56,876 nt of DNA, taken from Coriobacteriia bacterium. Lineage in GTDB: Bacteria; Actinomycetota; Coriobacteriia; Anaerosomatales; PHET01. Where the stretch lies: contig JBBREQ010000001.1 in the NCBI GenBank assembly GCA_038202795.1, positions 1 through 56,876 on the forward strand, given 5' to 3'. The notes beneath the pieces were generated by a model. That model worked only from the letters and a program-made list of their open reading frames with translations, ran no database searches and was not told the origin of the DNA. Position numbers and translations under genes: made by a program. Numbering within the stretch: position 1 is the stretch's first letter; every line of letters begins with the position of its first letter. Of the stretch, positions 7,194 to 32,247 are shown piece after piece.

Positions 7194-7772
7194 ATGTCAG
7201 AACCTGCATCGATGGTCGAGATCCGGTGGCACGGCAGGGGCGGCCAAGGTGCTGTGACAAGCGCTAAGCTGCTCGCCGATGCCGCATACCGGAGTGGATG
7301 GAAGGGCGTGACCAGCGCACCGTCGTTCGGCGCGGAACGGCGCGGCGCGCCCATCACGGCGTCTACGCGGCTCGACTCGGAGCCGATTCGCGTCTACTCG
7401 CAAGTGACTCGGCCCGATATCGCCGTAGTGCTCGATGATTCGCTGCTCGAGGTCGGCGGTGCCCTGCTCGGACTCAAACCGGGAGCCACCGTCGTGGTGA
7501 ACACGGTACGTCCCGCCGCCGAGCTGGGGGTGCCGGGGGACGCCCGGGTGGTCACCGCCGATGTGACGGGCGCGGCACAGGCGGCCGGTGTTCTCGTAGG
7601 CGGCAACCCCATCGTGAGTGCCGCGATTCTGGGCAGCATCGCCAAGGCTACGGGCGTGGTGACGATGGAGTCGGTGGAAGAGGCTATCGCCGGCATGTTC
7701 TCAGGCTCGGCGGTAGGAAAGAACACCGAGGCGGCGCGGATCGCCTACGAGTGCACCGAAGGGAAGCGCTGA
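7194..7772 (+). CDS. 2-oxoacid:ferredoxin oxidoreductase, gamma subunit (POR/VOR type)
   Basis: IRWHGRGGQGAVTSAKLLADAA...FGAERRGAP is the typical gamma-subunit signature. Confidence 0.9.
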   Translation: MSEPASMVEIRWHGRGGQGAVTSAKLLADAAYRSGWKGVTSAPSFGAERRGAPITASTRLDSEPIRVYSQVTRPDIAVVLDDSLLEVGGALLGLKPGATVVVNTVRPAAELGVPGDARVVTADVTGAAQAAGVLVGGNPIVSAAILGSIAKATGVVTMESVEEAIAGMFSGSAVGKNTEAARIAYECTEGKR

Positions 7773-8095
7773 TGGGTACGAGGGAGTGCGGTTCCCCGAT
7801 CGCGATGTCGAAGCCCGCGGCTGGTGAGGCGGGGCGTACCGGGGACTGGCGCTCGAAGCGGCCGGTCATGTTGGCCGAAAGCTGCCTTGCCGTGAAGCGG
7901 GGCGAGGCCGTCTGTCAGCTTTGCTGGGCATACTGCCCCGACTCGTGCATCGGACGCGGCGTCGGACCGGTGATCGACCTTGAGTACTGCAAGGGATGTG
8001 GCATCTGCGCAGAGGTGTGTCCCGCGAGCGCCATCGAGATGGTGCCCGAGTCTGTGCATGGCGTGTGCGACATCAAGAAGGAGCGAGACCGATGA
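7772..8095 (+). CDS. 2-oxoacid:ferredoxin oxidoreductase, delta subunit (2x[4Fe-4S] ferredoxin)
   Basis: ATG at 7772 overlaps the gamma-subunit stop. Cys motifs: C..CWAYCP and CKGCGICAEVCP. Confidence 0.85.
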   Translation: MGTRECGSPIAMSKPAAGEAGRTGDWRSKRPVMLAESCLAVKRGEAVCQLCWAYCPDSCIGRGVGPVIDLEYCKGCGICAEVCPASAIEMVPESVHGVCDIKKERDR

Positions 8096-8147
8096 AGATG
8101 AGACAAAGTCGCAGTAGCGGGGCTCGCAAGGACAGTAGGGCCGGAAG

Positions 8148-8612
8148 CTACTCTTCGGTGGGATCTTCGGGAGAGGCTCTTCTGACCAGGAAGTAGGTCA
8201 CTCCCAGCGCCAGTACCAAGAATCCGAGTGCGAACAGCACCAGTGGGCCGTAGGTCGACAGGTCGAGAAGAATGACCTTTCTGGCCAGTGCGATGATGGC
8301 AACGAGCACGACGATCTCGACGTGGATGGAGTGTCTCCGAAAGTAGACTTCGACGGTCTCGATAAGCTCGAGCGCGATGAGAACGGACAGGAACAGTCCC
8401 AGCACCTTGAACATGTCGGCTTCGGAGATGAAGAACTGATCGGTCGCAGGCATGGTACCGCGCAGCAGAGTGCTGACGGCAGCGTAGATGATCTCGAGGG
8501 TGACCAGGCCCACGACCAGGAACATCAGGGCCATGAGCACGCCTGCGATGATGCGTTTGCCCACGAAGGACCATCGCAGGATCTTCGAGGTATTCAGCTC
8601 CTGTTGCTTCAC
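8148..8612 (-). CDS. PsiE-family (phosphate-starvation-inducible E-like) membrane protein
   Basis: GTG at 8612 lies 5 nt after GGAGGA. Four TM segments, with ...LIALELIETVEVYFR...VEIVVLVAIIALARKVILLD as in PsiE-like proteins. The gene is visibly less GC-rich than its flanks. Confidence 0.7.
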   Translation of the reverse strand: MKQQELNTSKILRWSFVGKRIIAGVLMALMFLVVGLVTLEIIYAAVSTLLRGTMPATDQFFISEADMFKVLGLFLSVLIALELIETVEVYFRRHSIHVEIVVLVAIIALARKVILLDLSTYGPLVLFALGFLVLALGVTYFLVRRASPEDPTEE

Positions 8613-8887
8613 ACGAATCCTCCGTTGTAGCGACGCCGATGAGTGCATGATAGCGGTGTAGCGCCTCGCGCGCAGCGCCCGGAGGCGCTTCGCTCGGTGC
8701 TGAAGGAGCGCTGGAATGTCGCGTGGACGCAGTTCCTCCTCCCGGAACAGGGGAGCGGTTCGGCCCCTGATGGAGGATACTGAACACAGGCCACTGGCAC
8801 GCTCAGGTGGCCGATGATGGGCCTACACGACCGGCGGGTGAGCCCTCTGGGTACGATCCGGCAGGTTATCCAGTCTGAGGAGAGCAA

Positions 8888-10096
8888 GTGAGCGTCACCA
8901 CCACTGTCATGGCAGGCAACGAAGCCGCTGCCACCGCCGCCAAGCTCGCGCGCGTACAAGTCATTGCGGCGTACCCCATCACGCCGCAGACCTCCGTTGT
9001 CGAGCAGCTGTCCGCGTGGGTCGAGTCCGGTGAGCTGCCCGCCGAGTTCGTGACCGTCGAGTCCGAGCACTCGGCCCTGACCGTCTGCATCACCGCTTCC
9101 ACGGTGGGCGCGCGGGTCTTCACCGCCACCAGTGCCAACGGCCTCGCCTACATGACCGAGCAGGTCTGGTGGGCCGCAGGCGCCCGCTTGCCCATCGTCA
9201 TGTGCATCGCCAACCGGGCGATGGCCGCGCCATGGAACGTGCTCAACGACCAGCAGGATTCGATGAGCGTGCGCGATGCCGGCTGGATTCAGCTCTACTG
9301 CCGAGACAACCAAGAGATTCTCGATACCACCATCCAGGCCTATCGCATCGCCGAGCAGCTCAACGTGCCCGTGATGGTCTGCTACGACGGCTTCTTGCTC
9401 TCGCACACCATGATGCCCGTCGAGATACCTGCTGCCGAGACGGTCGACGCGTTCCTGCCGGCGCGGGTGCCGCTCACGATCGTAGACCCCGCCGACCCGC
9501 GTAACATCGGTCCCGTCACGCTCGCGGATCCACGCGTTGATGCGCAGGGGGTGAGTTGTCACGGCTACATGGAGATCCGCGCGCTGCACCACCAAGCGGT
9601 GCTTGACGCCCTGAAAGTCATTCCGGCGGTCGACGCTGAGTGGTCGGAGGCGACCGGTCGCGCATGGGGTGGCCTGACGTGGGAGCACCTGCTCGATGAC
9701 GCGGAGGTCGTGCTGGTTGCCGCAGGCTCGCTCGGCGTGCAGCTTACGGTCGCAGCCGAGCAGCTGCGCGAGCGGGGATTGAACGTCGGGGTCCTCGGCA
9801 TACGAGCGTATCGGCCGTTCCCGGCGGACGCCCTGCGGGGGAAGCTTGCCGGACGCCGTCTCGTCCTCGTGTTCGACAAGGCGCTCAGCTACGGCAACGA
9901 AGGTCCGATCTGCGGGGACATCAAGGCGACCATGAGCGGGCGACCGGGCGCGCCGACGGTATTCGGTGCCGTATGCGGGCTCGGGGGTCGCGACGTGAGC
10001 GTTGAGCACCTAGTGGACGCCGCTTTGCGCGCGATCGCTGACCGCGAGGATGGCGTCACCGACCGTCCGGCCGACTGGCTGAACCTACATCTGTAA
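8888..10096 (+). CDS. 2-oxoacid:ferredoxin oxidoreductase, alpha subunit
   Basis: GTG follows GAGGAG. MAGNEAAATAAKLARVQVIAAYPITPQT... is a typical alpha-subunit N-terminus. 402 aa. Confidence 0.9.
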   Translation: MSVTTTVMAGNEAAATAAKLARVQVIAAYPITPQTSVVEQLSAWVESGELPAEFVTVESEHSALTVCITASTVGARVFTATSANGLAYMTEQVWWAAGARLPIVMCIANRAMAAPWNVLNDQQDSMSVRDAGWIQLYCRDNQEILDTTIQAYRIAEQLNVPVMVCYDGFLLSHTMMPVEIPAAETVDAFLPARVPLTIVDPADPRNIGPVTLADPRVDAQGVSCHGYMEIRALHHQAVLDALKVIPAVDAEWSEATGRAWGGLTWEHLLDDAEVVLVAAGSLGVQLTVAAEQLRERGLNVGVLGIRAYRPFPADALRGKLAGRRLVLVFDKALSYGNEGPICGDIKATMSGRPGAPTVFGAVCGLGGRDVSVEHLVDAALRAIADREDGVTDRPADWLNLHL

Positions 10097-10108
10097 AGGC
10101 GACAGCTC

Positions 10109-11005
10109 ATGACCAAGATCATCGACCTTCCCGATACGCACTACGTCCTGCCAGGCAACCGCGCGTGTGCCGGATGTGGCATCGGGATTGGACTGCGCCA
10201 GATAACCGCCGCCCTCGAGGGCCAGATGGTCATGGCTGTCCCGGCTAGTTGCCTCACGGTGTTTGGCGGCATGTACCCGGTCTCCTCGGTAAAGGTGCCT
10301 TGGGTCAACGTCGCATTCCCCTCGACGGCCGCTGCCGCCTCGGGGCTGGCTGCAGGTCTGCGCGCGATAGGCAAGGCAGATGCGATGACGGTGCTCGCGA
10401 TGGCGGGCGATGGTGGCACGGGCGACATCGGCATTCAGGCGCTCTCGGGCGCCGCCGAGCGCAACGACGATTTCATCTACCTGTGCTACGACAACGAGGC
10501 GTACATGAATACCGGCACGCAGCGCTCGGGCCTCACGCCCTCTGGCGCGCGCACCACCACCACGTGGTCCGGCAAGCGCGAGAACCCCAAGGACCTGCCC
10601 GCGATCATGGAGGCGCACAACATCCCCTACGTCGGCTCGACCAGCGCGGTCTTCCCCGAGGATGTCTACGACAAGGTCGCCAAAGCGCGCGCCATCCATG
10701 GCCTGCGCTACATCCATATGAACACGCCGTGCCCCTCAGGCTGGTCGTTCGACCCCAAGGACACCGTGAAGTTGGGCAAGATGGCCGTCGACGCGGGCGT
10801 CGTCGTGCTCTATGAGGTCGTGGACGGCGAGTTCCGTCTCACCGGCCGCAGCAAGGCGCTCGTGAAGGTAGGCCTCAGGGCGACGGTCGCCGAGTACGTC
10901 GCGACACAAGGCCGCTTCAAGGGCATGACCGCCGAGACGACCGCTGCGGTCCAGGACTGGGTCGACACCCGCTGGGCGCGCTACGTCGCGCGCGACGCGA
11001 GCTAG
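10109..11005 (+). CDS. 2-oxoacid:ferredoxin oxidoreductase, beta subunit (TPP-binding)
   Basis: N-terminal CAGCG motif and TPP motif GDGGTGDIG...YDNEAYMNTG. Confidence 0.9.
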   Translation: MTKIIDLPDTHYVLPGNRACAGCGIGIGLRQITAALEGQMVMAVPASCLTVFGGMYPVSSVKVPWVNVAFPSTAAAASGLAAGLRAIGKADAMTVLAMAGDGGTGDIGIQALSGAAERNDDFIYLCYDNEAYMNTGTQRSGLTPSGARTTTTWSGKRENPKDLPAIMEAHNIPYVGSTSAVFPEDVYDKVAKARAIHGLRYIHMNTPCPSGWSFDPKDTVKLGKMAVDAGVVVLYEVVDGEFRLTGRSKALVKVGLRATVAEYVATQGRFKGMTAETTAAVQDWVDTRWARYVARDAS

Positions 11006-11159
11006 CACCTCTCGGTCTGCGCTTCGCGACGTCCGCCACACTCGAGCTCGGCGGCCCTTTTTCATCGCCGCGCCTCGCTGTGGGCATATACCTGTCAGAT
11101 GTATCCGTCTTGGGCGGTGGCCTGACACTGCGCTCAGGGCATGCGAGAAAGGCGATTCA

Positions 11160-12554
11160 ATGCCGACACAAGTGTCTTCTCCACCGCTACTTGCTGCAGG
11201 GTCGCGTGTAGTGGTCGTAGTCTCGAGCGGTCCGCCTACCATCAGGCTGGGCGCCTATGTGGGCATGCCCGAACTCGTGGGCGTGCCCCAAGGCAGGGCG
11301 CTGACTCTGATCCAGGAGGCTGGTCTGTCGTCGCAGGTGTTCAACGATTACAGCGATGTGCACAAGCGCGGTGACGTGATCGGGCAGCTGCCTGCAGGCG
11401 GGGGCGGAGTCGCATCAGGGGCAGAATCGGTGTTGCTCGTCTCCAGCGGGAGCTCGGGCACCCCCCTGCGTGAACAGGTACTGCCGGAGGTGGTGGGCAA
11501 GCCGGAGGCCGAGGCTGTCTCGGCGCTCCAGAGTGCGGGCTTCTCGCCGCAGTTGGTTCGGCAACCCAGCGACACCGTGCCCGCCGGCGTAGTGAGCGCG
11601 CAACTGCCAAGCCGGGCATCTCTGGCGGTCGCTCCCACAAAGAAGAGCATGCCCTGGTGGCTGTGGGCGCTCGTGGCGTTCGCGCTGGTCGCCGTAGGCG
11701 CGGTCGCCTACTTCGCGATGAGCGGCGAGACGACCGTGGTGCCCGATGTCATCGGTCTCACCCAAGAGGGAGCGGTCACGTCCCTAGAGGCAGCGGGCCT
11801 CGTTGCCGAGGTGATTGCCGTCGAACTCGCGGAGGGCGGAGAGATCGGCGCCGTCCTGAAGCAGGACCCGGCAGCGGGCGCAGAAGTAAACCGAGGCAGC
11901 GTCGTGAAGCTTGAGGTTCCTTCCACGGAGAAGCTGGTCGAAGTGCCTGATGTGCGAGGCGAGAACCAGGCAGACGCGACCCGAGCGCTCGAGGACGCTG
12001 GGTTCAAAGTCGCTGTCACTCGTAGAGAGAGCAACTCGGTGGACACCGGTCTGGTCATCGAGCAGGCGCCTGCGGGCGGCCAGGGCGCGACAGCCCAGTC
12101 AACCGTTGAGATCGTGATCTCGAGCGGCCCCGCGCAAGAGCTCGTCAAGGTCCCCGACGTCGAGGGACTCGCCTCAGCTGATGCCCAGACAGCGCTGACC
12201 GACCTAGGGCTCAAAGTAGTGATCGCCCAGAATCCCAGCACGCAGGTTGCAGCGGGCATCGTGATCTCGCAACTGCCTGCGGTCGGGGACACGGTGGCCC
12301 CCGGCACGAGTGTGGGCATTGTGGTCTCCACGGGACCAGCAGCTACCACCGACGAGGTGGAGGCACCCAACGTAGTGGGCGTGACGCTGGCTGAGGCGCA
12401 GCAAGTCATGACCGATGCCGGGCTTGAGGCGATTCCCGTCCCATCGACCGGCAGCGGCAGGCCTGCCAACGAGGTAGTGGCGCAGACCCCCGAGGCTGGA
12501 GCTAGCGTGCAGAAGGGAAGCGGAGTGGTGCTGTTCTACTCATCCGGACAGTAG
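11160..12554 (+). CDS. PASTA-repeat membrane protein (no kinase or PBP domain)
   Basis: Six PASTA-like repeats (e.g. VPDVIGLTQEGAVTSLEAAGL, VPDVRGENQADATRALEDAGF, VPDVEGLASADAQTALTDLGL). A single TM helix (WWLWALVAFALVAVGAVAYFAM, about 11655..11722) lies between repeats 2 and 3. Confidence 0.8.
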   Translation: MPTQVSSPPLLAAGSRVVVVVSSGPPTIRLGAYVGMPELVGVPQGRALTLIQEAGLSSQVFNDYSDVHKRGDVIGQLPAGGGGVASGAESVLLVSSGSSGTPLREQVLPEVVGKPEAEAVSALQSAGFSPQLVRQPSDTVPAGVVSAQLPSRASLAVAPTKKSMPWWLWALVAFALVAVGAVAYFAMSGETTVVPDVIGLTQEGAVTSLEAAGLVAEVIAVELAEGGEIGAVLKQDPAAGAEVNRGSVVKLEVPSTEKLVEVPDVRGENQADATRALEDAGFKVAVTRRESNSVDTGLVIEQAPAGGQGATAQSTVEIVISSGPAQELVKVPDVEGLASADAQTALTDLGLKVVIAQNPSTQVAAGIVISQLPAVGDTVAPGTSVGIVVSTGPAATTDEVEAPNVVGVTLAEAQQVMTDAGLEAIPVPSTGSGRPANEVVAQTPEAGASVQKGSGVVLFYSSGQ

Positions 12555-14545: not shown

Positions 14546-14779
14546 GTGCGGGGGCTGGCGTTGCTGCGCACGGGAGGCTTCGGGGGCGTGATCACTCAGA
14601 AACAGGGATCCTGGTCGGCCACCTACACCGCCAAGGCATCCAACATCAGTGGGGGCTCGCGATACACCGCGAGGGTCAAGCTTCCCTCAACGGGCAGGTG
14701 GCGGGTTCGGGCAGTTCATGCCGAGGATTCGCTGAACGCCAAGACCCACTCGAGCTACGGCTATGTGACAGTGAAGTAG
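14546..14779 (+). pseudogene. 3' remnant of a surface-protein gene (C-terminal ...YVTVK module only)
   Basis: The frame of track ORF 14324..14779 gives ...QKQGSWSATYTAKASNISGGSRYTARVKLPSTGRWRVRAVHAEDSLNAKTHSSYGYVTVK. This aligns with the last ~65 aa of the 18075..20855 protein (...AKASNYLSYTKYAGSLRLSSKGVWQLRAY...SDYVTVK). There is no plausible start, and it begins right after a terminator hairpin. Confidence 0.5.
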
Positions 14780-14835
14780 ACGCACTGCTCCTCAGTCGTT
14801 TGACTCCAGGCGCCTCAAGTTCTAGTGTGGTTCAC

Positions 14836-14857
14836 AGTAGTTCGAAAGAATTCGAAC
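14836..14857. promoter_or_regulatory. Candidate ArsR operator, copy 1
   Basis: AGTAGTTCGAAAGAATTCGAAC contains the perfect inverted repeat GTTCGAA-N4-TTCGAAC. It lies 12 nt upstream of the arsR-like start. Confidence 0.5.
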
Positions 14858-14868
14858 AAGGAGCGACC

Positions 14869-15186
14869 GTGACTACCGTGACACGGGCAAGCGCAACGGA
14901 TCTGGATGCTGTGTTCAAGGCGCTTGCGTCTTCGCATCGCCGCGAGATACTCCGGATGCTGAGCGTTGCTGAGTGCGATGGCGGCAAGACCTGTTGCGCG
15001 GCCCAGGAAGTGTGTGCCTGCAAGATCTCGGATCACTTGGGTCTGTCACCTTCGACGACGTCCCACCACATGTCGGTGCTTCGGGATGCTGGACTGGTGT
15101 CGGGTCGCAAGGAGGGGCTGTGGACGTACTACGCACTTCGGCGTGAGGTGTTGTCCGCGGCTGCTGAGGCGCTGACCAGCCTCTAG
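14869..15186 (+). CDS. ArsR/SmtB family metalloregulator
   Basis: GTG at 14869 follows AAGGAG. HRREILRML...EVCACKISDHLGLSPSTTSHHMSVLRDAGLV is an ELCVC-type motif plus HTH. Confidence 0.85.
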   Translation: MTTVTRASATDLDAVFKALASSHRREILRMLSVAECDGGKTCCAAQEVCACKISDHLGLSPSTTSHHMSVLRDAGLVSGRKEGLWTYYALRREVLSAAAEALTSL

Positions 15187-15264: not shown

Positions 15265-15504
15265 ATGATGGAGATCAAGGTACTCGGACCAGGATGCGCC
15301 AACTGCAACAGGCTCGAACAAGCCACTCGCGAGGCGGTCCAGAAAGCGGGCCTCGAAGCCTCGATCGAGAAGGTGAGCGAACTGCAGGAGATCATGGGCT
15401 ACGGAGTCATGTCGACTCCCGCCTTGGTCGTCAACGGTGAACTTCGGCTTGCCGGCCGTGTGCCGTCTGTCGACGACCTTGTCGCACTGCTCAAGAGGGG
15501 CTAG
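15265..15504 (+). CDS. Small thioredoxin-fold protein (redox-active disulfide protein 2 / TM0996-MTH895-like)
   Basis: 79 aa: MMEIKVLGPGCANCNRLE...MSTPALVVNGE. It has a CxxC near the N-terminus and the typical family length. Confidence 0.85.
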   Translation: MMEIKVLGPGCANCNRLEQATREAVQKAGLEASIEKVSELQEIMGYGVMSTPALVVNGELRLAGRVPSVDDLVALLKRG

Positions 15505-15510
15505 GCGGTC

Positions 15511-16530
15511 GTGCTCGAAGCCCTCGGCACCGTCTTGAGCTGGTTGAACGAGAACCTCCTCAAGATGACCTGGCTCAACGACCTTGTCGGCCGACTTGTT
15601 CAAGATGTGCTCGGGCTATCGCTGACGAGCAGGTTGGGTACGAGCATCCAGTTCTTCATCTACGACTCGGTCAAGATCTTCGTGCTGCTCTCCGCGCTCA
15701 TCTTCGCCATCTCGTATGTGCAAAGCTACTTCCCGCCTGAGCGCACCAAGGCGATCCTCGGCCGCTTCAATGGTGTCGGGGGCATGGTCCTTGGGGCGTT
15801 GCTGGGCACGATCACACCGTTTTGCTCGTGCTCCTCCATCCCGTTGTTCATTGGGTTCACCTCCGCGGGTCTGCCCCTTGGCGTGACGTTCGCGTTCCTG
15901 ATCTCTTCGCCGCTTGTCGACCTCGCGTCGGTGATGCTGCTTGCGAGCATCTTCAACTGGACCACGGCGATCGCCTACGTCGTCATGGGTCTCCTTCTGG
16001 CGGTCCTCGGCGGCGCGACCATCAGTGCATTGAAGCTCGAGCGCTATGTCGAGCCCTTCGTGTTCGGGACTCATCTGGCCGATGCGGAGCTGCCCGAGCT
16101 GACGAGGCGAGATCGCATCTCGTTCGCGCGCGAGCAGGTCGCCGACATTGTGAGGCGGGTGTGGAAGTACGTTCTCATCGGCGTAGGAATCGGGGCTGTG
16201 ATCCATGGGTGGATACCGGGTGAGTTCATCTCGGCGGTCCTTGGTGATCAGAACCCGTTTGCGGTGATCATCGCAACGGCGATCGGGGTGCCGATGTACG
16301 CCGACATCTTCGGTACCCTGCCCATCGCCGAGGCGCTCGTGGGCAAGGGCGTCGGCTTGGGTACGGTCCTGGCGTTCATGATGGCCGTAACGGCGTTGTC
16401 GCTCCCGTCGCTCATCATGCTCAAGAAGGTGGTGAAGACCCCGCTGCTCGCGGCGTTCTTCACGATCGTGGTCACCGGCATCATCATCATCGGCTACACA
16501 TTCAACGCCTTTGGTAGGTTGCTGGTCTAA
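15511..16530 (+). CDS. DUF318/ArsP-like permease
   Basis: 339 aa, polytopic, with the TPFCSCSSIPLFIGF Cys motif characteristic of this permease family. Confidence 0.85.
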   Translation: MLEALGTVLSWLNENLLKMTWLNDLVGRLVQDVLGLSLTSRLGTSIQFFIYDSVKIFVLLSALIFAISYVQSYFPPERTKAILGRFNGVGGMVLGALLGTITPFCSCSSIPLFIGFTSAGLPLGVTFAFLISSPLVDLASVMLLASIFNWTTAIAYVVMGLLLAVLGGATISALKLERYVEPFVFGTHLADAELPELTRRDRISFAREQVADIVRRVWKYVLIGVGIGAVIHGWIPGEFISAVLGDQNPFAVIIATAIGVPMYADIFGTLPIAEALVGKGVGLGTVLAFMMAVTALSLPSLIMLKKVVKTPLLAAFFTIVVTGIIIIGYTFNAFGRLLV

Positions 16531-16574
16531 CGGGACGCAGGCACGCGGCCCTCTCCGAAGTAGTGAGGATCGAC

Positions 16575-17087
16575 ATGGCCGACAAGGACGAACTTCAAGA
16601 GACGACGGAGCCGGGGGCGCCTGGGCCCCGGGTGTTCTCGACAAAGCTCGTCGTGGCGCTGGTCGTCGTGGCGGTGTTCGCAGGCGTTCTGGTCGCCAAG
16701 GCCCTCGCGCCCGATCCGCAAGCGGATTCCGGTGCTGGGGAATCTGCATCAATCACGTCCACCCGCACGGATGCTACGGCCGACTACGAGGCGGCCCTCA
16801 AATCGGGCAAGCCGATCTACGTACTGTTCCACTCGCTCACTTGACAGTCATGCCTCGATATCTCGGCGGTCGCCGACAAGGTCATGCCTTCCTATGCTGA
16901 CAAGATCGTCTTTGTGAACGCCATCACCGACGATTCGTCGGCGCAGCGACTCGCAGCCAAGTTCTCGTTCCAAGGGATTCCAACATCGTTCTTCCTGTCC
17001 GCCGACGGGCAGGTCGTCGAGGGTTACACCGGCGCGTTGACCGAGCAAGATCTGCGGGCGCGGTTGGACAGGCTGGCCAGCCAGTGA
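16575..17087 (+). CDS. Membrane-anchored thioredoxin-fold protein with in-frame TGA at 16842..16844 (candidate selenocysteine, UxxC)
   Basis: Track ORFs 16563..16844 and 16884..17087 share one frame and are separated only by this TGA. Read-through gives an N-terminal TM anchor, then ...GKPIYVLFHSLT-[TGA]-QSC-LDISAVADKVMPSYADKIVFVNAITDD...GIPTSFFLSADGQVV. The TGA aligns with the first Cys of the thioredoxin WCxxC motif. The alternative is a nonsense pseudogene. Confidence 0.55.
16849..16886 (+). promoter_or_regulatory. SECIS-like stem-loop downstream of the in-frame TGA
   Basis: Upper stem UCGGC (16863..16867) / GCCGA (16872..16876) with apical loop GGUC (16868..16871). Lower stem CAUGCC (16849..16854) / GG(U)CAUG (16880..16886). 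The loop starts at +27 from the U of UGA. Confidence 0.4.
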
Positions 17088-17788
17088 ACATCGATGCCCT
17101 TGCCGATGGGCTCGGCACGAGCGCTGCCTGGGGGCCGCTCGGCTTCGGCATCGCATTCCTCGGGGGTTTGGTCGCGGGGCTCGGGCCCTGCGTCCTTCCC
17201 ATGATTCCGGCCGTGTTCGGGTACGTGACGGGGCGGGTTGCTGAGTCGGAGGACACGCCGCCGCTCATGCTGGGGCTGGCGCTCTCGGCGGTGTTCGTAC
17301 TCGGAATGAGCCTGGTGTTCGCAACCATCGGTGCGATCGCCGGCCTCATCGGACATGCACTGATCGTGGGCGAGTGGGCCTACTACATCGTGGCGGCGAT
17401 ATGCGTGGTGATCGGTCTGCAGATGTTGGAGGTCATCAACCTGCCGGTTGATCGGCTGAACAGATGGCTACCCGTCAGGAGGCCGGAACGTCGAGGTGCC
17501 CTTGGGGCCCTGCTATTCGGGATGCTGTTTGGCCTGGTGGCGACGCCGTGCTCGACTCCTATCCTTGCGGCGATCGCTGCAATGGCGGCAACCACAGGAA
17601 ACGCCCTGAAGGGCGCGGCTCTTCTGTTCGCTTACGGCTTGGGCAAAGGCACGCCTTTGTTGCTCCTGGGCGTCGCATCCAGCTCGCTCGTGTTCATGCG
17701 GTCGGTTTCCAAGTACACGCCGGCCCTGACGAAGCTCGGCGGCGTCGGGGTACTGGGTGCCGGTGCGTATCTTCTGTGGATTGCCTGA
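17084..17788 (+). CDS. ccdA: CcdA/DsbD-family thiol:disulfide electron-transfer membrane protein
   Basis: GTG overlaps the upstream stop (GTGA). Motif GLVAGLGPCVLPMIPAVFGYV and a second conserved Cys in ATPCSTPIL. Confidence 0.85.
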   Translation: MNIDALADGLGTSAAWGPLGFGIAFLGGLVAGLGPCVLPMIPAVFGYVTGRVAESEDTPPLMLGLALSAVFVLGMSLVFATIGAIAGLIGHALIVGEWAYYIVAAICVVIGLQMLEVINLPVDRLNRWLPVRRPERRGALGALLFGMLFGLVATPCSTPILAAIAAMAATTGNALKGAALLFAYGLGKGTPLLLLGVASSSLVFMRSVSKYTPALTKLGGVGVLGAGAYLLWIA

Positions 17789-29495: not shown

Positions 29496-30470
29496 ATGCG
29501 TTCCAACTACGCGATCGGTGTTGACGTGGGCGGTACCCGTATCGCCGTTGGGCTTGTGGAGCGCAAGGGACGCATCGTCAAAGACGCCAAGCGGTTGACG
29601 CCCAAGACCGGTCCGTTCGCTGTTGTGGACACCATCATCGAGCTGGTCGAAGAGGTCCGCTCGGGCCTGCAGCCGGCCGAGGTCGCCGGCGTGGGCATCG
29701 GCCTTCCGGCCCAGGTGGACTTCGTGCGACAAGAGGTCGAGTACTGCACGAACCTGCCACTCGCCGGTATCGATGTGCGCTCGCTGGTCATGTCACGCAC
29801 CAAGTCCGAGGTGACCATCGACAACGACGGACATCTCGCCGCTGTGGGTGAGTCTCGCTACGGCGCTGCCAAAGGCGCGCGCGACTTCATCATGCTCACG
29901 CTGGGGACCGGTGTCGGCGGCGGGCTGTTCGTCGCCGGTGAGCCCTACCGCGGTAACCGCGGTCTGGCGGGGGAGGTGGGCCACACCGTCATCGACCTCG
30001 ACGGCCCTCCCTGCCCGTGTGGCGGCTACGGGCATCTGGAGGCGTATCTGGGCAGGCCCGCGATTGCTGCCAAAGGCAAGGTGGCGGCACGCCTGTTCTC
30101 GGGCAAAGCGATACTTGACGCTGCGGGCGGCACGCTCGAGGACGTGAGCGCGGAGTCGGTCATCATCGCCTCTGGCGGTGGCGATCCGGTCGCACGGGAG
30201 ATCCTATTGGAGTGTGGCGAGATTCTCGGTCGTGCTCTCGTGGGGTTCGTCAACCTGCTGAACCCCAAGCTGGTGTGCATTGGGGGCGGCGTCGGCGAGT
30301 CGGCGGACTTCTTGGTCGAACGCGCTTCCGAGGTCGTTCAGTCCGAGGCGCTCGCCGGGCGCCGCGACGTCACGGTCGTCCAAGCCATTCTCGGAAATGA
30401 TGCTGGCATTCTAGGCGCGGCGGCACTCGCTTTCGATGAGCACGATTCGCACGAGGGACTCCACCGGTAG
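29496..30470 (+). CDS. ROK-family sugar kinase (glucokinase-like)
   Basis: IGVDVGGTRIAVG, GEVGH and the zinc motif CPCGGYGHLEAY. Confidence 0.9.
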   Translation: MRSNYAIGVDVGGTRIAVGLVERKGRIVKDAKRLTPKTGPFAVVDTIIELVEEVRSGLQPAEVAGVGIGLPAQVDFVRQEVEYCTNLPLAGIDVRSLVMSRTKSEVTIDNDGHLAAVGESRYGAAKGARDFIMLTLGTGVGGGLFVAGEPYRGNRGLAGEVGHTVIDLDGPPCPCGGYGHLEAYLGRPAIAAKGKVAARLFSGKAILDAAGGTLEDVSAESVIIASGGGDPVAREILLECGEILGRALVGFVNLLNPKLVCIGGGVGESADFLVERASEVVQSEALAGRRDVTVVQAILGNDAGILGAAALAFDEHDSHEGLHR

Positions 30471-30489
30471 GCGACCTTGGGAGGTCACG

Positions 30490-32247
30490 ATGTCTGACGA
30501 ACGTATCGAGTCACACGAAGAACGCCTGTACGTGCTGCGAGACAAGGCGGCGCGCGAAGGCTTCACCGTGCCCGATGACGCGCTTGACTACATCGCCGAC
30601 AAGTACGCGATGGAGACCACGCTCAAAGGCGCGCTGATCAACGTTGCCGCGTATGCGGCCCGGAGGGGACTACCGGTCGACCGCGCCATGGCGGCACTGG
30701 TCCTGGACGGTGTGAGGCCACAGGCCGCCTCCGTCGATGCGGCCGCCTCCGCGGAGCCGGAGATCGCCGAGGAGTCCGAAGACCCTGTCGAGCCCGACGA
30801 GCCGATTGAACCCGAAATCGACGAGTCTTCGCAAGAGACCTACGAGCCACATGCGGATCAGAGCGATGAGCCCGATGAGCCGGCCGCAGACGATGATACC
30901 GCCGGTACGGCCGAAGAGCGCCCGTTCGAGCCTGTGACCACCACGTTGTTCGCGCCACCCCCGGCCGTCACGCCCCCTGCTCCTAGCGCGCCTGAGCCCG
31001 CAGCCCAGGCGGAGCCGGATCTCCCGCCGTTCGTCTCGGCAGCTCCGCCTGAGCCGATCTGGGGTTCCGAGACGGCCGCCGACAGCACTCCGGCGGTTCA
31101 GTCACAGCCCGCACAGCCCACCGCACAACCCGCCGACTCCACGCCGGCCGAGGTCTGGTTCGCGCCGATGCGCAGCGTCAAGAAGGAGTCGCTGGTCAAG
31201 CGCGTGGGCAAGCTTCTCAAGCTCGCGGGCCTCGCTCAGGCGATCGACGACGGCGACTTGGTCGCGATCAAGCTGCACTTCGGCGAAGAGGGCAACACCG
31301 GCTTCGTCCACCCCGTCTTCCTGCGCGAGGTCGTGCGCCGGGTGCGCAAGCACGGCGGCAAGCCGTTCCTGACCGACTGCAACACGCTGTACCGGGGCAA
31401 GCGTGCCAATGCCGTCGACCACGCCACGTGCGCGGTTCGCAACGGCTTCAGCTTCTCGACCATCAACGCGCCGGTGATCATCGCCGATGGTCTCACCGGC
31501 ACAGACGGAGTAGACGTTCCTATCTCCGGCTCCAAGCACTTCGACTCGGTGCGTATAGGCGCAGCCGCGGTCCACGCTGACGCGATGGTCGTCGTTAGCC
31601 ACGTCAAGGGTCACGAAGCCACCGGCTTCGGCGGCGCGATGAAGAACATCGGGATGGGGCTCGGTACGAGAGCCGCCAAGCAGCGCATGCACAGCGATCT
31701 CAAGCCCCAAGTGATCGCCGAGAAGTGCACCGCATGCTAGCGGTGTGTGAAGTCCTGCCCGGTTCACGCCATCCAGATCACCGACAAGGTCGCGGTGATC
31801 GACTACGAGCTGTGCTACGGCTGCGGCGAGTGCGTGGCCGCCTGCCCGTACGGCGCCATCGAGATTCAGTGGAAGACCGAGCCCGATGCCATTCAGGAGA
31901 AGATCGTCGAGCACTGCGCCGGCGCGCTCGCGGGCAAAGAAGGCAAAGTCATCTACCTCTCATTCGTGACCAACGTGAGCCCTGACTGCGACTGTTGGAG
32001 CTTCTCGGACGCAAGCGTTGTGGCCGATATCGGGGTGCTGGCCTCAAGCGACCTGGTCGCCATCGATCAGGCCGCCTACGACCTGGTCGTCGGTGCGAAG
32101 GGTCTACCCGGCAGCCGAGGCGAAGGGCTTGCCCCGGGCAGCGACAAGTTTCGCGAGATCACCGGTATCGACGGTACGATCGCGATCCGCTACGCCCAAC
32201 AGATGGGTCTGGGCACGAGCAGCTACGAACTCAAGACGCTCGAGTAG
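30490..32247 (+). pseudogene. COG2768/DUF362 Fe-S protein gene interrupted by an in-frame TAG (31738..31740), with a long N-terminal extension
   Basis: Track ORFs 30436..31740 and 31747..32247 share one frame. Read-through gives ...HVKGHEATGFGGAMKNIGMG...EKCTAC-[TAG]-RCVKSCPVHAI...CYGCGECVAACPYGAI...DCDCW. The stop therefore splits the first CxxCxxCxxxCP motif. Confidence 0.6.

Follow-up and report, generated by a model that had tools for sequence, protein, structure and literature searches.

Thioredoxin-fold proteins in which selenocysteine (Sec, U) takes the place of the first Cys of the CxxC motif (UxxC) form a common and well documented class of selenoproteins (PMC13188914), and Actinobacteria have been described as one of three selenoprotein-rich phyla (PMC1794560). 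The selenocysteine insertion sequence (SECIS) of bacteria has its apical loop 16-37 nt from the UGA (PMC10778597), and this loop is small and contains a G (PMC1088965). It has also been reported that thioredoxin-fold proteins can work together with the membrane protein CcdA, as in the CcdA-Etrx system, which repairs oxidised envelope proteins (PMC3914529). Here we describe a gene, which we call trxU, found in a stretch of 56,876 nucleotides (hereafter the window) from a Coriobacteriia bacterium of the order Anaerosomatales (assembly GCA_038202795.1, contig JBBREQ010000001.1, positions 1 to 56,876). The gene is interrupted by an in-frame TGA that is conserved among relatives; its downstream half is translated, a hairpin particular to the TGA-containing forms follows the stop, and ccdA is maintained as the next gene. 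These observations make it very probable that trxU encodes a selenoprotein, namely a membrane-tethered thioredoxin-fold thiol-disulfide oxidoreductase with Sec as the attacking residue of a U-Q-S-C active site. The elements on which the analysis centers are the following:

16575..17087, + strand: trxU; with read-through of the TGA at codon 90, the predicted product is membrane-anchored, has 170 residues and a thioredoxin fold, and carries U-Q-S-C as its active site.
16647..16697, + strand: N-terminal hydrophobic signal-anchor LVVALVVVAVFAGVLVA, residues 25-41, with R19 and K24 before it, as read off the translation.
16842..16844, + strand: in-frame UGA, proposed Sec codon, at the first Cys of CxxC; TGA is also present here in 21 other independent sequences.
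16863..16876, + strand: core SECIS-like hairpin, UCGGC (16863..16867) pairing with GCCGA (16872..16876) around the loop GGUC (16868..16871).
16849..16886, + strand: outer (lower) stem CAUGCC / GG-U-CAUG (16849..16854 with 16880..16886), which forms in the minimum free energy (MFE) fold of the window and is not conserved.

Automatic calling gives two open reading frames (ORFs), 16563..16844 and 16884..17087. A first-pass annotation of the window had pointed out that both lie in the same frame and are parted only by the TGA, and this is indeed the case: 16842..16844 is the sole stop between them and the frame is open from 16845. The probable start of trxU is the ATG at 16575, with a Shine-Dalgarno sequence (GAGGA, 16565..16569) 5 nt upstream. 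From its charged N-terminus, the product would continue through a hydrophobic anchor of 17 residues (25-41) and a linker of low complexity into a thioredoxin domain, with the sequence ...PIYVLFHSLT-U-QSCLDISAVADK at the junction. The hydrophobic stretch is retained in the aligned homologs, and would serve as a signal-anchor. When Cys was substituted at the TGA, the read-through product matched the Pfam Thioredoxin family PF00085 over residues 67-165 (E=5e-10, 39.7 bits, cutoff 23.5), a stretch that extends to both sides of residue 90, where the TGA lies; PF13098 matched as well, and the best phmmer matches in the PDB were classical thioredoxins, down to E=3e-9. Thus, the idea that read-through yields one coherent membrane-anchored thioredoxin-fold protein holds for the domain as well as for the frame. 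The redox dyad corresponds to U-Q-S-C at residues 90-93, and in the alignment of 23 full-length homologs, whose common motif is FHSLT-C-x-P-C-V-E-I-S, the TGA of the window falls on the first Cys, as had been proposed. The product also contains an I-P-T motif (G-I-P-T in the window and Y-I-P-T in relatives), which from E. coli Trx we take to be the cis-Pro loop. Residue 134 (16974..16976) is Gly only in the window (F-Q-G-I-P-T), all other members compared having Tyr (F-Q-Y-I-P-T). This substitution is probably harmless, G-I-P-T being presumably the canonical cis-Pro loop motif of classical thioredoxins.

The same TGA was found well beyond the window. Including the latter, 22 TGA forms were gathered: seven from species-representative metagenome-assembled genomes of Coriobacteriia/Actinomycetota, 12 from metagenome contigs of the Joint Genome Institute (JGI) and two from further contigs. 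The first seven (L001-L006 and L029, with chromosome OW818687.1 as the source of L002 and the assemblies CAWDNM01, CAVSCC01, CAZFRE01, CAVYQS01, CAVPCY01 and CAZGNF01 as those of the other six) came from a scan of one genome per GTDB species, done with two family patterns, of which the one able to retrieve TGA forms (FVNAI[TS]DD) is independent of the Cys codon; 41 loci were obtained and those other than these seven had TGC or TGT. The 12 JGI matches were recovered with the DNA pattern Y-V-L-F-H-S-L-[S/T]-TGA-x-S-C, which stops ten bases short of the hairpin, and all 12 turned out to be full orthologs. The last two, L054 (GCA_034370385.1) and L055, were reached through C-terminal fragments, and in both a 90-residue upstream ORF ends in the TGA. 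The comparison with orthologs suggested in the first-pass annotation therefore gives an alternation in this column, with TGC or TGT in 33 loci and TGA in 22 sequences.

Selection on the coding sequence extends across the stop. In 20 TGA forms, the ratio of nonsynonymous to synonymous divergence (dN/dS) was 0.18 over the 50 codons after the TGA (dS 0.94) and 0.22 over the 30 codons before it, with dS in the range of 0.94-1.03, that is, at a synonymous divergence of around 1. None of these 20 forms has additional stops and all terminate at the stop that overlaps ccdA, so that both halves are under purifying selection in an intact gene, and the earlier view that this is not a decayed pseudogene is sustained. 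The internal ATG at 16884, with which the second called ORF begins, is ATC in L003, L005 and L006, and the fragments present in databases begin at various positions; these facts show that the downstream half is translated by read-through of the UGA, with no conserved restart. Reassignment of UGA in the whole genome was considered and rejected, given that TGA works as an ordinary stop in the window, where trxU and ccdA both end in it. When the window and the Sec loci were scanned for in-frame TGA-split genes, trxU was the sole case.

The hairpin that follows the UGA conforms to the published geometry of a bacterial SECIS, with a 5-bp stem and the loop GGUC located at +27..+30 (taking the U of UGA as +1), which leaves a spacer of 23 nt; the same spacing was found in 20 of 20 aligned TGA forms. 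The 5-bp stem is intact in all 22 TGA forms and in five of the 33 Cys forms (Fisher p = 6e-11), and when the comparison is restricted to Cys forms with the same SAV[AV][DE] peptide the figures are 22/22 and 4/14 (Fisher p = 4e-6), neither test being corrected for phylogeny. The loop is GGUC or AGUU in every TGA form, with an invariant G-U. Its outer bases are complementary in every Sec form, as G..C or, in L044-L046, L050 and L052, as A..U. The third pair of the stem joins the third base of the Ser codon to that of the second Ala codon; most Sec forms have G-C here, L044, L045, L050 and L052 have A-U, and just 13 of the 33 Cys forms make the pair. Compensatory changes from G-C to A-U affecting both sides were thus observed among the TGA forms at two pairs (columns 24-33 and 27-30). 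In the alignment of 20 sequences, none of 500 column shuffles attained as high a covariation score or as many both-sided changes as observed, and sliding the partners by one to three columns lowered pairing from 91% to 26-74%. The question raised in the first-pass annotation, whether the hairpin co-varies with the TGA, is in this way answered in favour of Sec, both by its presence and by its compensatory changes, and the other checks proposed there that were carried out here were likewise favourable. Constraint on synonymous positions points in the same direction: third-position entropy at codons +7..+10 is 0.63-0.74 bits in TGA forms and 1.53-1.59 bits in Cys forms, while both groups are alike at neighbouring four-fold codons, which indicates that the constraint is local to +7..+10.

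With regard to folding, the 5-bp stem is part of the MFE structure in 18 of 20 Sec forms and of the RNAalifold consensus (20 sequences from +4), whereas RNAalifold applied to eight sequences, taken from the UGA onwards, returned another structure that lacked covariation and was not retained. On its own, the hairpin of the window is not significant (MFE z = -1.1), and its significance derives only from the comparison with relatives. The two-tier stem-loop initially described is upheld in its upper part, that is, the stem UCGGC/GCCGA with the loop GGUC at +27..+30. The lower stem is not conserved: across TGA relatives 74% of the cells are paired, the end pairs are broken in about half of the sequences, no compensatory change exists and the lower pairings vary from one sequence to another. 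This outer stem is not established and would be at best specific to the window.

Other features distinguish the TGA forms from their Cys counterparts. Immediately before the UGA, T is found in 22/22 Sec forms, compared with 2/33 Cys forms at the same position; the codon concerned (16839..16841 in the window) is always AGT (Ser) or ACT (Thr) in the 22 TGA forms, while 26 of the 33 Cys loci use ACC or ACG. Third positions in the genomes with TGA forms are around 80% G+C, and yet T occupies position -1 in all 22, a sign that the sequence on the 5' side of the Sec codon may be under selection. The base after the UGA (+4) is C or G in TGA forms. The active site also differs: it reads U-x-S-C in all Sec forms, with L, I or V as the next residue, and C-x-P-C, with V or I next, in 30 of the 33 Cys loci.

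In a neighbour-joining tree built with the Sec/Cys column masked, which is based on around 110 columns and is not robust, most Sec forms grouped in one clade, with a Cys clade (L008, L009 and L037) nested inside it and the Sec form L029 located elsewhere. The Cys forms L037 (from 6097) and L026 (from 3926) keep the full hairpin TCGGCGGTCGTCGA, including the complementary outer loop bases. Both agree with the 'remnant SECIS' pattern that has been described for Sec-to-Cys conversions (PMC1794560), and the case of L037, nested among Sec forms, fits a recent reversion of this kind. A further comparison is offered by L024 (6001..6480, HGW-Actinobacteria-7, PHET01000003.1), the genome closest to the window among those compared, as judged by 93% identity in a DUF362 protein. 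Its thioredoxin is a Cys form, C-Q-S-C, with the Ser typical of Sec forms and F-H-S-T-T before it, and is only 49% identical to that of the window; judging from these two values, trxU appears to evolve or move much faster than its neighbours. A broader proposal can be put forward tentatively, and we give it somewhat less than an even chance: that these genes constitute an uncatalogued family of extracytoplasmic, CcdA-fed Sec thioredoxins from environmental Coriobacteriia, in which the switch between Cys and Sec is coupled to a change from Pro to Ser (C-x-P-C versus U-x-S-C) and the SECIS was recruited from a hairpin latent in the S-A-V-A-D codons. Such a latent hairpin would make repeated switching easy in both directions.

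Several observations weigh against the identification of trxU as a selenoprotein gene and have to be taken into account. The peptide S-A-V-A-D, through its codons UCN-GCN-GUN-GCN-GAY, yields the central G-U and all but one of the five pairs for free, so that the independent evidence for the hairpin is only the third pair, the complementarity that closes the loop and the synonymous constraint. The Fisher tests ignore phylogeny, and most TGA forms belong to one clade. No SECIS family was detected with Rfam, either in the window at the gathering threshold or in a permissive scan of 16800..16950, a result that says little because the bacterial SECIS models in Rfam are gene-specific. No selA, selB, selD or tRNA-Sec was found in the 56.9-kb window with ARAGORN, Rfam and Pfam, the latter applied to essentially all sizeable ORFs, nor was Sec machinery present in 55 related loci, which amount to around 0.5 Mb and cover no whole genome. 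These searches, with ARAGORN run on the window and 53 loci and tblastn queries consisting of E. coli SelA, SelB and SelD, comprised around 0.6 Mb of DNA overall. Finally, the window contains another premature stop, a TAG at 31738..31740 in a DUF362/4Fe-4S ferredoxin gene (30436..32247, + strand), within the sequence C-T-A-C-*-R-C-V-K-S-C-P. Two homologs that are 92-93% identical (P0121 and P0122) have Lys at this site, encoded by AAG, which differs from TAG by a single base, and the gene is uninterrupted in all the homologs inspected; pyrrolysine was rejected on these grounds, and the TAG looks like a nonsense mutation or base error specific to the window rather than a recoding event. The assembly is therefore not free of such changes and an in-frame stop alone proves nothing here, so that it is the comparison with relatives that makes the case for Sec at 16842.

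That TAG is also an argument for considering the TGA of trxU a nonsense mutation, whether in a pseudogene or as a sequencing error, and a single base change suffices to turn TGC or TGT into TGA and leave a gene that is dead or miscalled. However, the same TGA is present in 21 other independent assemblies at a dS of around 1, the downstream part evolves under the constraint described above with no further stops or frameshifts in TGA forms, and an accident would not be expected to bring about the changes that accompany Sec, i.e. x-S-C-L for x-P-C-V, T at -1 and the frozen hairpin codons. This explanation is effectively refuted and we assign it a negligible probability. Equally improbable is a split gene, in which translation would stop at the UGA and restart at ATG 16884 to give a membrane stub and a 67-residue C-terminal piece. 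Gene callers do annotate it in this way, with around 60 database fragments of 56-82 residues and pairs of 90-aa plus 57- or 77-aa genes called in L054 and L055, but the loss of the ATG in several relatives goes along with fragments that begin variously (57, 59, 67 or 77 residues), the 11 codons that separate TGA from ATG are conserved like the rest and show no evident Shine-Dalgarno sequence, and neither piece has a complete thioredoxin fold or active site.

The alternative that deserves more attention, although we consider it unlikely, is that the UGA is read without selenium, by a near-cognate tRNA (Trp or Cys) or a suppressor acting on a leaky U-UGA-C context and stimulated by the hairpin, to give a WxxC or CxxC product. 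The clear translation of the downstream half, the constrained surroundings of the UGA (T at -1 in 22/22, C or G at +4) and the lack of Sec machinery in the window and related loci would all be accounted for by such a mechanism. Nevertheless, the position is that of the catalytic nucleophile, where Trp would abolish activity, and for Cys a plain TGC would suffice, as in 33 relatives. Furthermore, the hairpin is of the SelB type, with a small loop, an invariant apical G-U and a spacing that agrees with published SECIS elements (PMC10778597), and alternation of Sec and Cys at a redox CxxC is a classic signature of selenoproteins (PMC1088965; PMC1794560). It is the catalytic position, the Cys/TGA alternation and the SelB-type hairpin that point to Sec rather than to another form of read-through.

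If trxU encodes a selenoprotein, as we propose, the UGA at 16842 (codon 90) would be decoded by Sec-tRNA(Sec) brought by SelB, which would in turn be recruited by the mRNA hairpin at 16863..16876, with its apical G-U 23 nt past the UGA. Insertion of the signal-anchor would place the thioredoxin domain outside the membrane, as suggested by the sequence and by the partnership with CcdA. Co-translated CcdA would then keep this domain reduced, with electrons from cytoplasmic thioredoxin transferred across the membrane; that CcdA may reduce the selenenylsulfide is deduced from the fact that the gene order is conserved and translationally coupled. The protein could thus function as a CcdA-fed extracytoplasmic reductase, for example in cytochrome c maturation or in the repair of oxidised envelope proteins. 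Cultivated relatives in the Anaerosomatales have multihaem cytochromes along with cytochrome c biogenesis genes (PMC9686372), and one of the Cys forms (P0100) comes from the Anaerosomatales strain Es71-Z0120; reduction of apocytochromes is one candidate role predicted for trxU. By analogy with CcdA-Etrx, repair of envelope proteins is another.

The genes surrounding trxU are arranged in a conserved cluster in the order ArsR / Trx_3 / ArsP-permease / trxU / ccdA, as observed by synteny across loci, and those of the window are:

14698..15186, + strand: ArsR/SmtB-family regulator at the head of the cluster (PF01022; NF033788, 81 bits, cutoff 55), given with the bounds of its ORF.
15265..15504, + strand: small cytoplasmic Thioredoxin_3 / MTH895-ArsE protein, a Cys form with GPGCANC (PF13192, E=9e-30; TIGR00412, 104.5 bits, cutoff 62).
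15511..16530, + strand: ArsP_1-family permease (PF03773, E=7e-65), the gene upstream of trxU in the same cluster.
17084..17788, + strand: ccdA (DsbD_TM, PF02683, E=3e-29), whose GTG start at 17084 overlaps the trxU stop TGA 17085..17087 (GTGA).

The presence of ccdA directly downstream with a GTGA overlap had been noted in the first-pass annotation, and the domain match leaves its identity as stated. It is the next gene after trxU in nearly all Sec and Cys loci. In L055 a gene of the Nitro_FeMo-Co type (dinitrogenase cofactor-binding-like) and then an OsmC gene (10322..11184) replace ccdA after trxU, and coupling to CcdA is therefore not universal. The true start of the ArsR/SmtB gene is probably further downstream than the ORF bound at 14698. 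The ArsP_1 permease is distant from the SO_0444 and SaoE efflux families, below whose cutoffs it scores, and the three genes upstream of trxU suggest a cluster that may respond to metals or metalloids. Further upstream lies a 2-oxoacid:ferredoxin oxidoreductase (7194..11005) with its gamma, delta, alpha and beta genes at 7194, 7751, 8888 and 10109, in which a psiE gene on the opposite strand (8148..8648) splits delta from alpha.

One consequence of these results concerns annotation. A search with the 80 residues that follow the stop retrieved around 60 database proteins (P0241-P0306) of 56-82 residues, which are C-terminal pieces of TGA-form genes with assorted internal starts, and which are unnamed or labelled as 'hypothetical protein' or 'thioredoxin-like negative regulator of GroEL'. 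In the TGA-form genes of L054 (9659..10174) and L055 (9719..10234), the ORF of 90 residues that precedes the fragment has no Pfam match. Public annotation thus cuts trxU in two, and the selenoproteome of widespread subsurface and soil Actinomycetota is undercounted. We regard trxU as almost certainly belonging, so far without annotation, to a long-established class of bacterial selenoproteins, a solid result that is useful for annotation and unsurprising to a specialist. If confirmed, it would imply that CcdA supplies a selenol nucleophile exposed on the outer side of the membrane; in our literature searches we found no paper joining a selenoprotein with CcdA and a thioredoxin in this manner, and those on selenocysteine in Coriobacteriia or Anaerosomatales gave nothing relevant. 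Comprising 22 Sec forms and over 30 Cys forms that share their operon context, and with nested reversions, the family represents a clean natural experiment, suited to the study of how a SECIS originates within a coding sequence and of which active-site residues change along with Sec.

With respect to known systems, the hairpin of trxU can be compared with the SECIS of E. coli fdhF, which contacts SelB through G23, U24 and the bulged U17. Both hairpins are located 3' of the UGA inside the coding region and present the tetraloop GGUC. The fdhF loop lies at +22..+25 and that of trxU is 5 nt further, at +27..+30; the trxU hairpin lacks the bulged U that fdhF has in its upper stem, its conserved stem has only 5-7 bp with a lower part that is not conserved, and there is no sequence homology to fdhF outside the loop. 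The resemblance to fdhF that had been drawn from the GGUC loop at +22..+25 is correct for that loop and is limited to the pattern NGUN, with spacing and bulged U differing. The fdhF SECIS sequence used matched E. coli fdhF with at least 99% identity in 5413 E. coli records, all three of those listed being 100% identical.

As for the protein, the membrane-tethered thioredoxin-fold proteins ResA and StoA of B. subtilis (PMC2665060) and Etrx1 and Etrx2 of S. pneumoniae (PMC3914529) are encoded next to ccdA, as trxU is, and the expected electron path is the same, from cytoplasmic Trx to CcdA and to the outer thioredoxin-fold protein. These proteins use Cys and are of the TlpA/ResA type with extra structural elements, whereas the trxU product is closest to classical compact thioredoxins. 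The ResA model NF002854 gave 27.9 bits (cutoff 170) over the C-terminal 44 residues only, and the trxU product is not a member of the ResA family despite the similar partnership with ccdA. None of the curated NCBIfam models of thioredoxin-like selenoproteins, which include SaoT (NF040730), HUIPC (NF047660), VPGUxxT (NF041383) and PDO_seleno_TRX (TIGR02187), gave a match to trxU at E<=0.001. The closest likeness is with the UxxC thioredoxin-fold selenoproteins (PF00085 and PF13098, 'Thiol:disulfide interchange protein') compiled in the 2026 inventory of the prokaryotic selenoproteome (PMC13188914), with WP_010956703.1 and WP_011366075.1 as reference sequences, a likeness based on their published description. 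They share with trxU the fold, Sec in place of the N-terminal Cys of CxxC, widespread Cys homologs and a SECIS hairpin inside the ORF right after the UGA. What sets trxU apart from them is its origin in Actinomycetota related to Coriobacteriia/Anaerosomatales, its membrane anchor and its place in the ArsR / Trx_3 / ArsP-permease / trxU / ccdA cluster.

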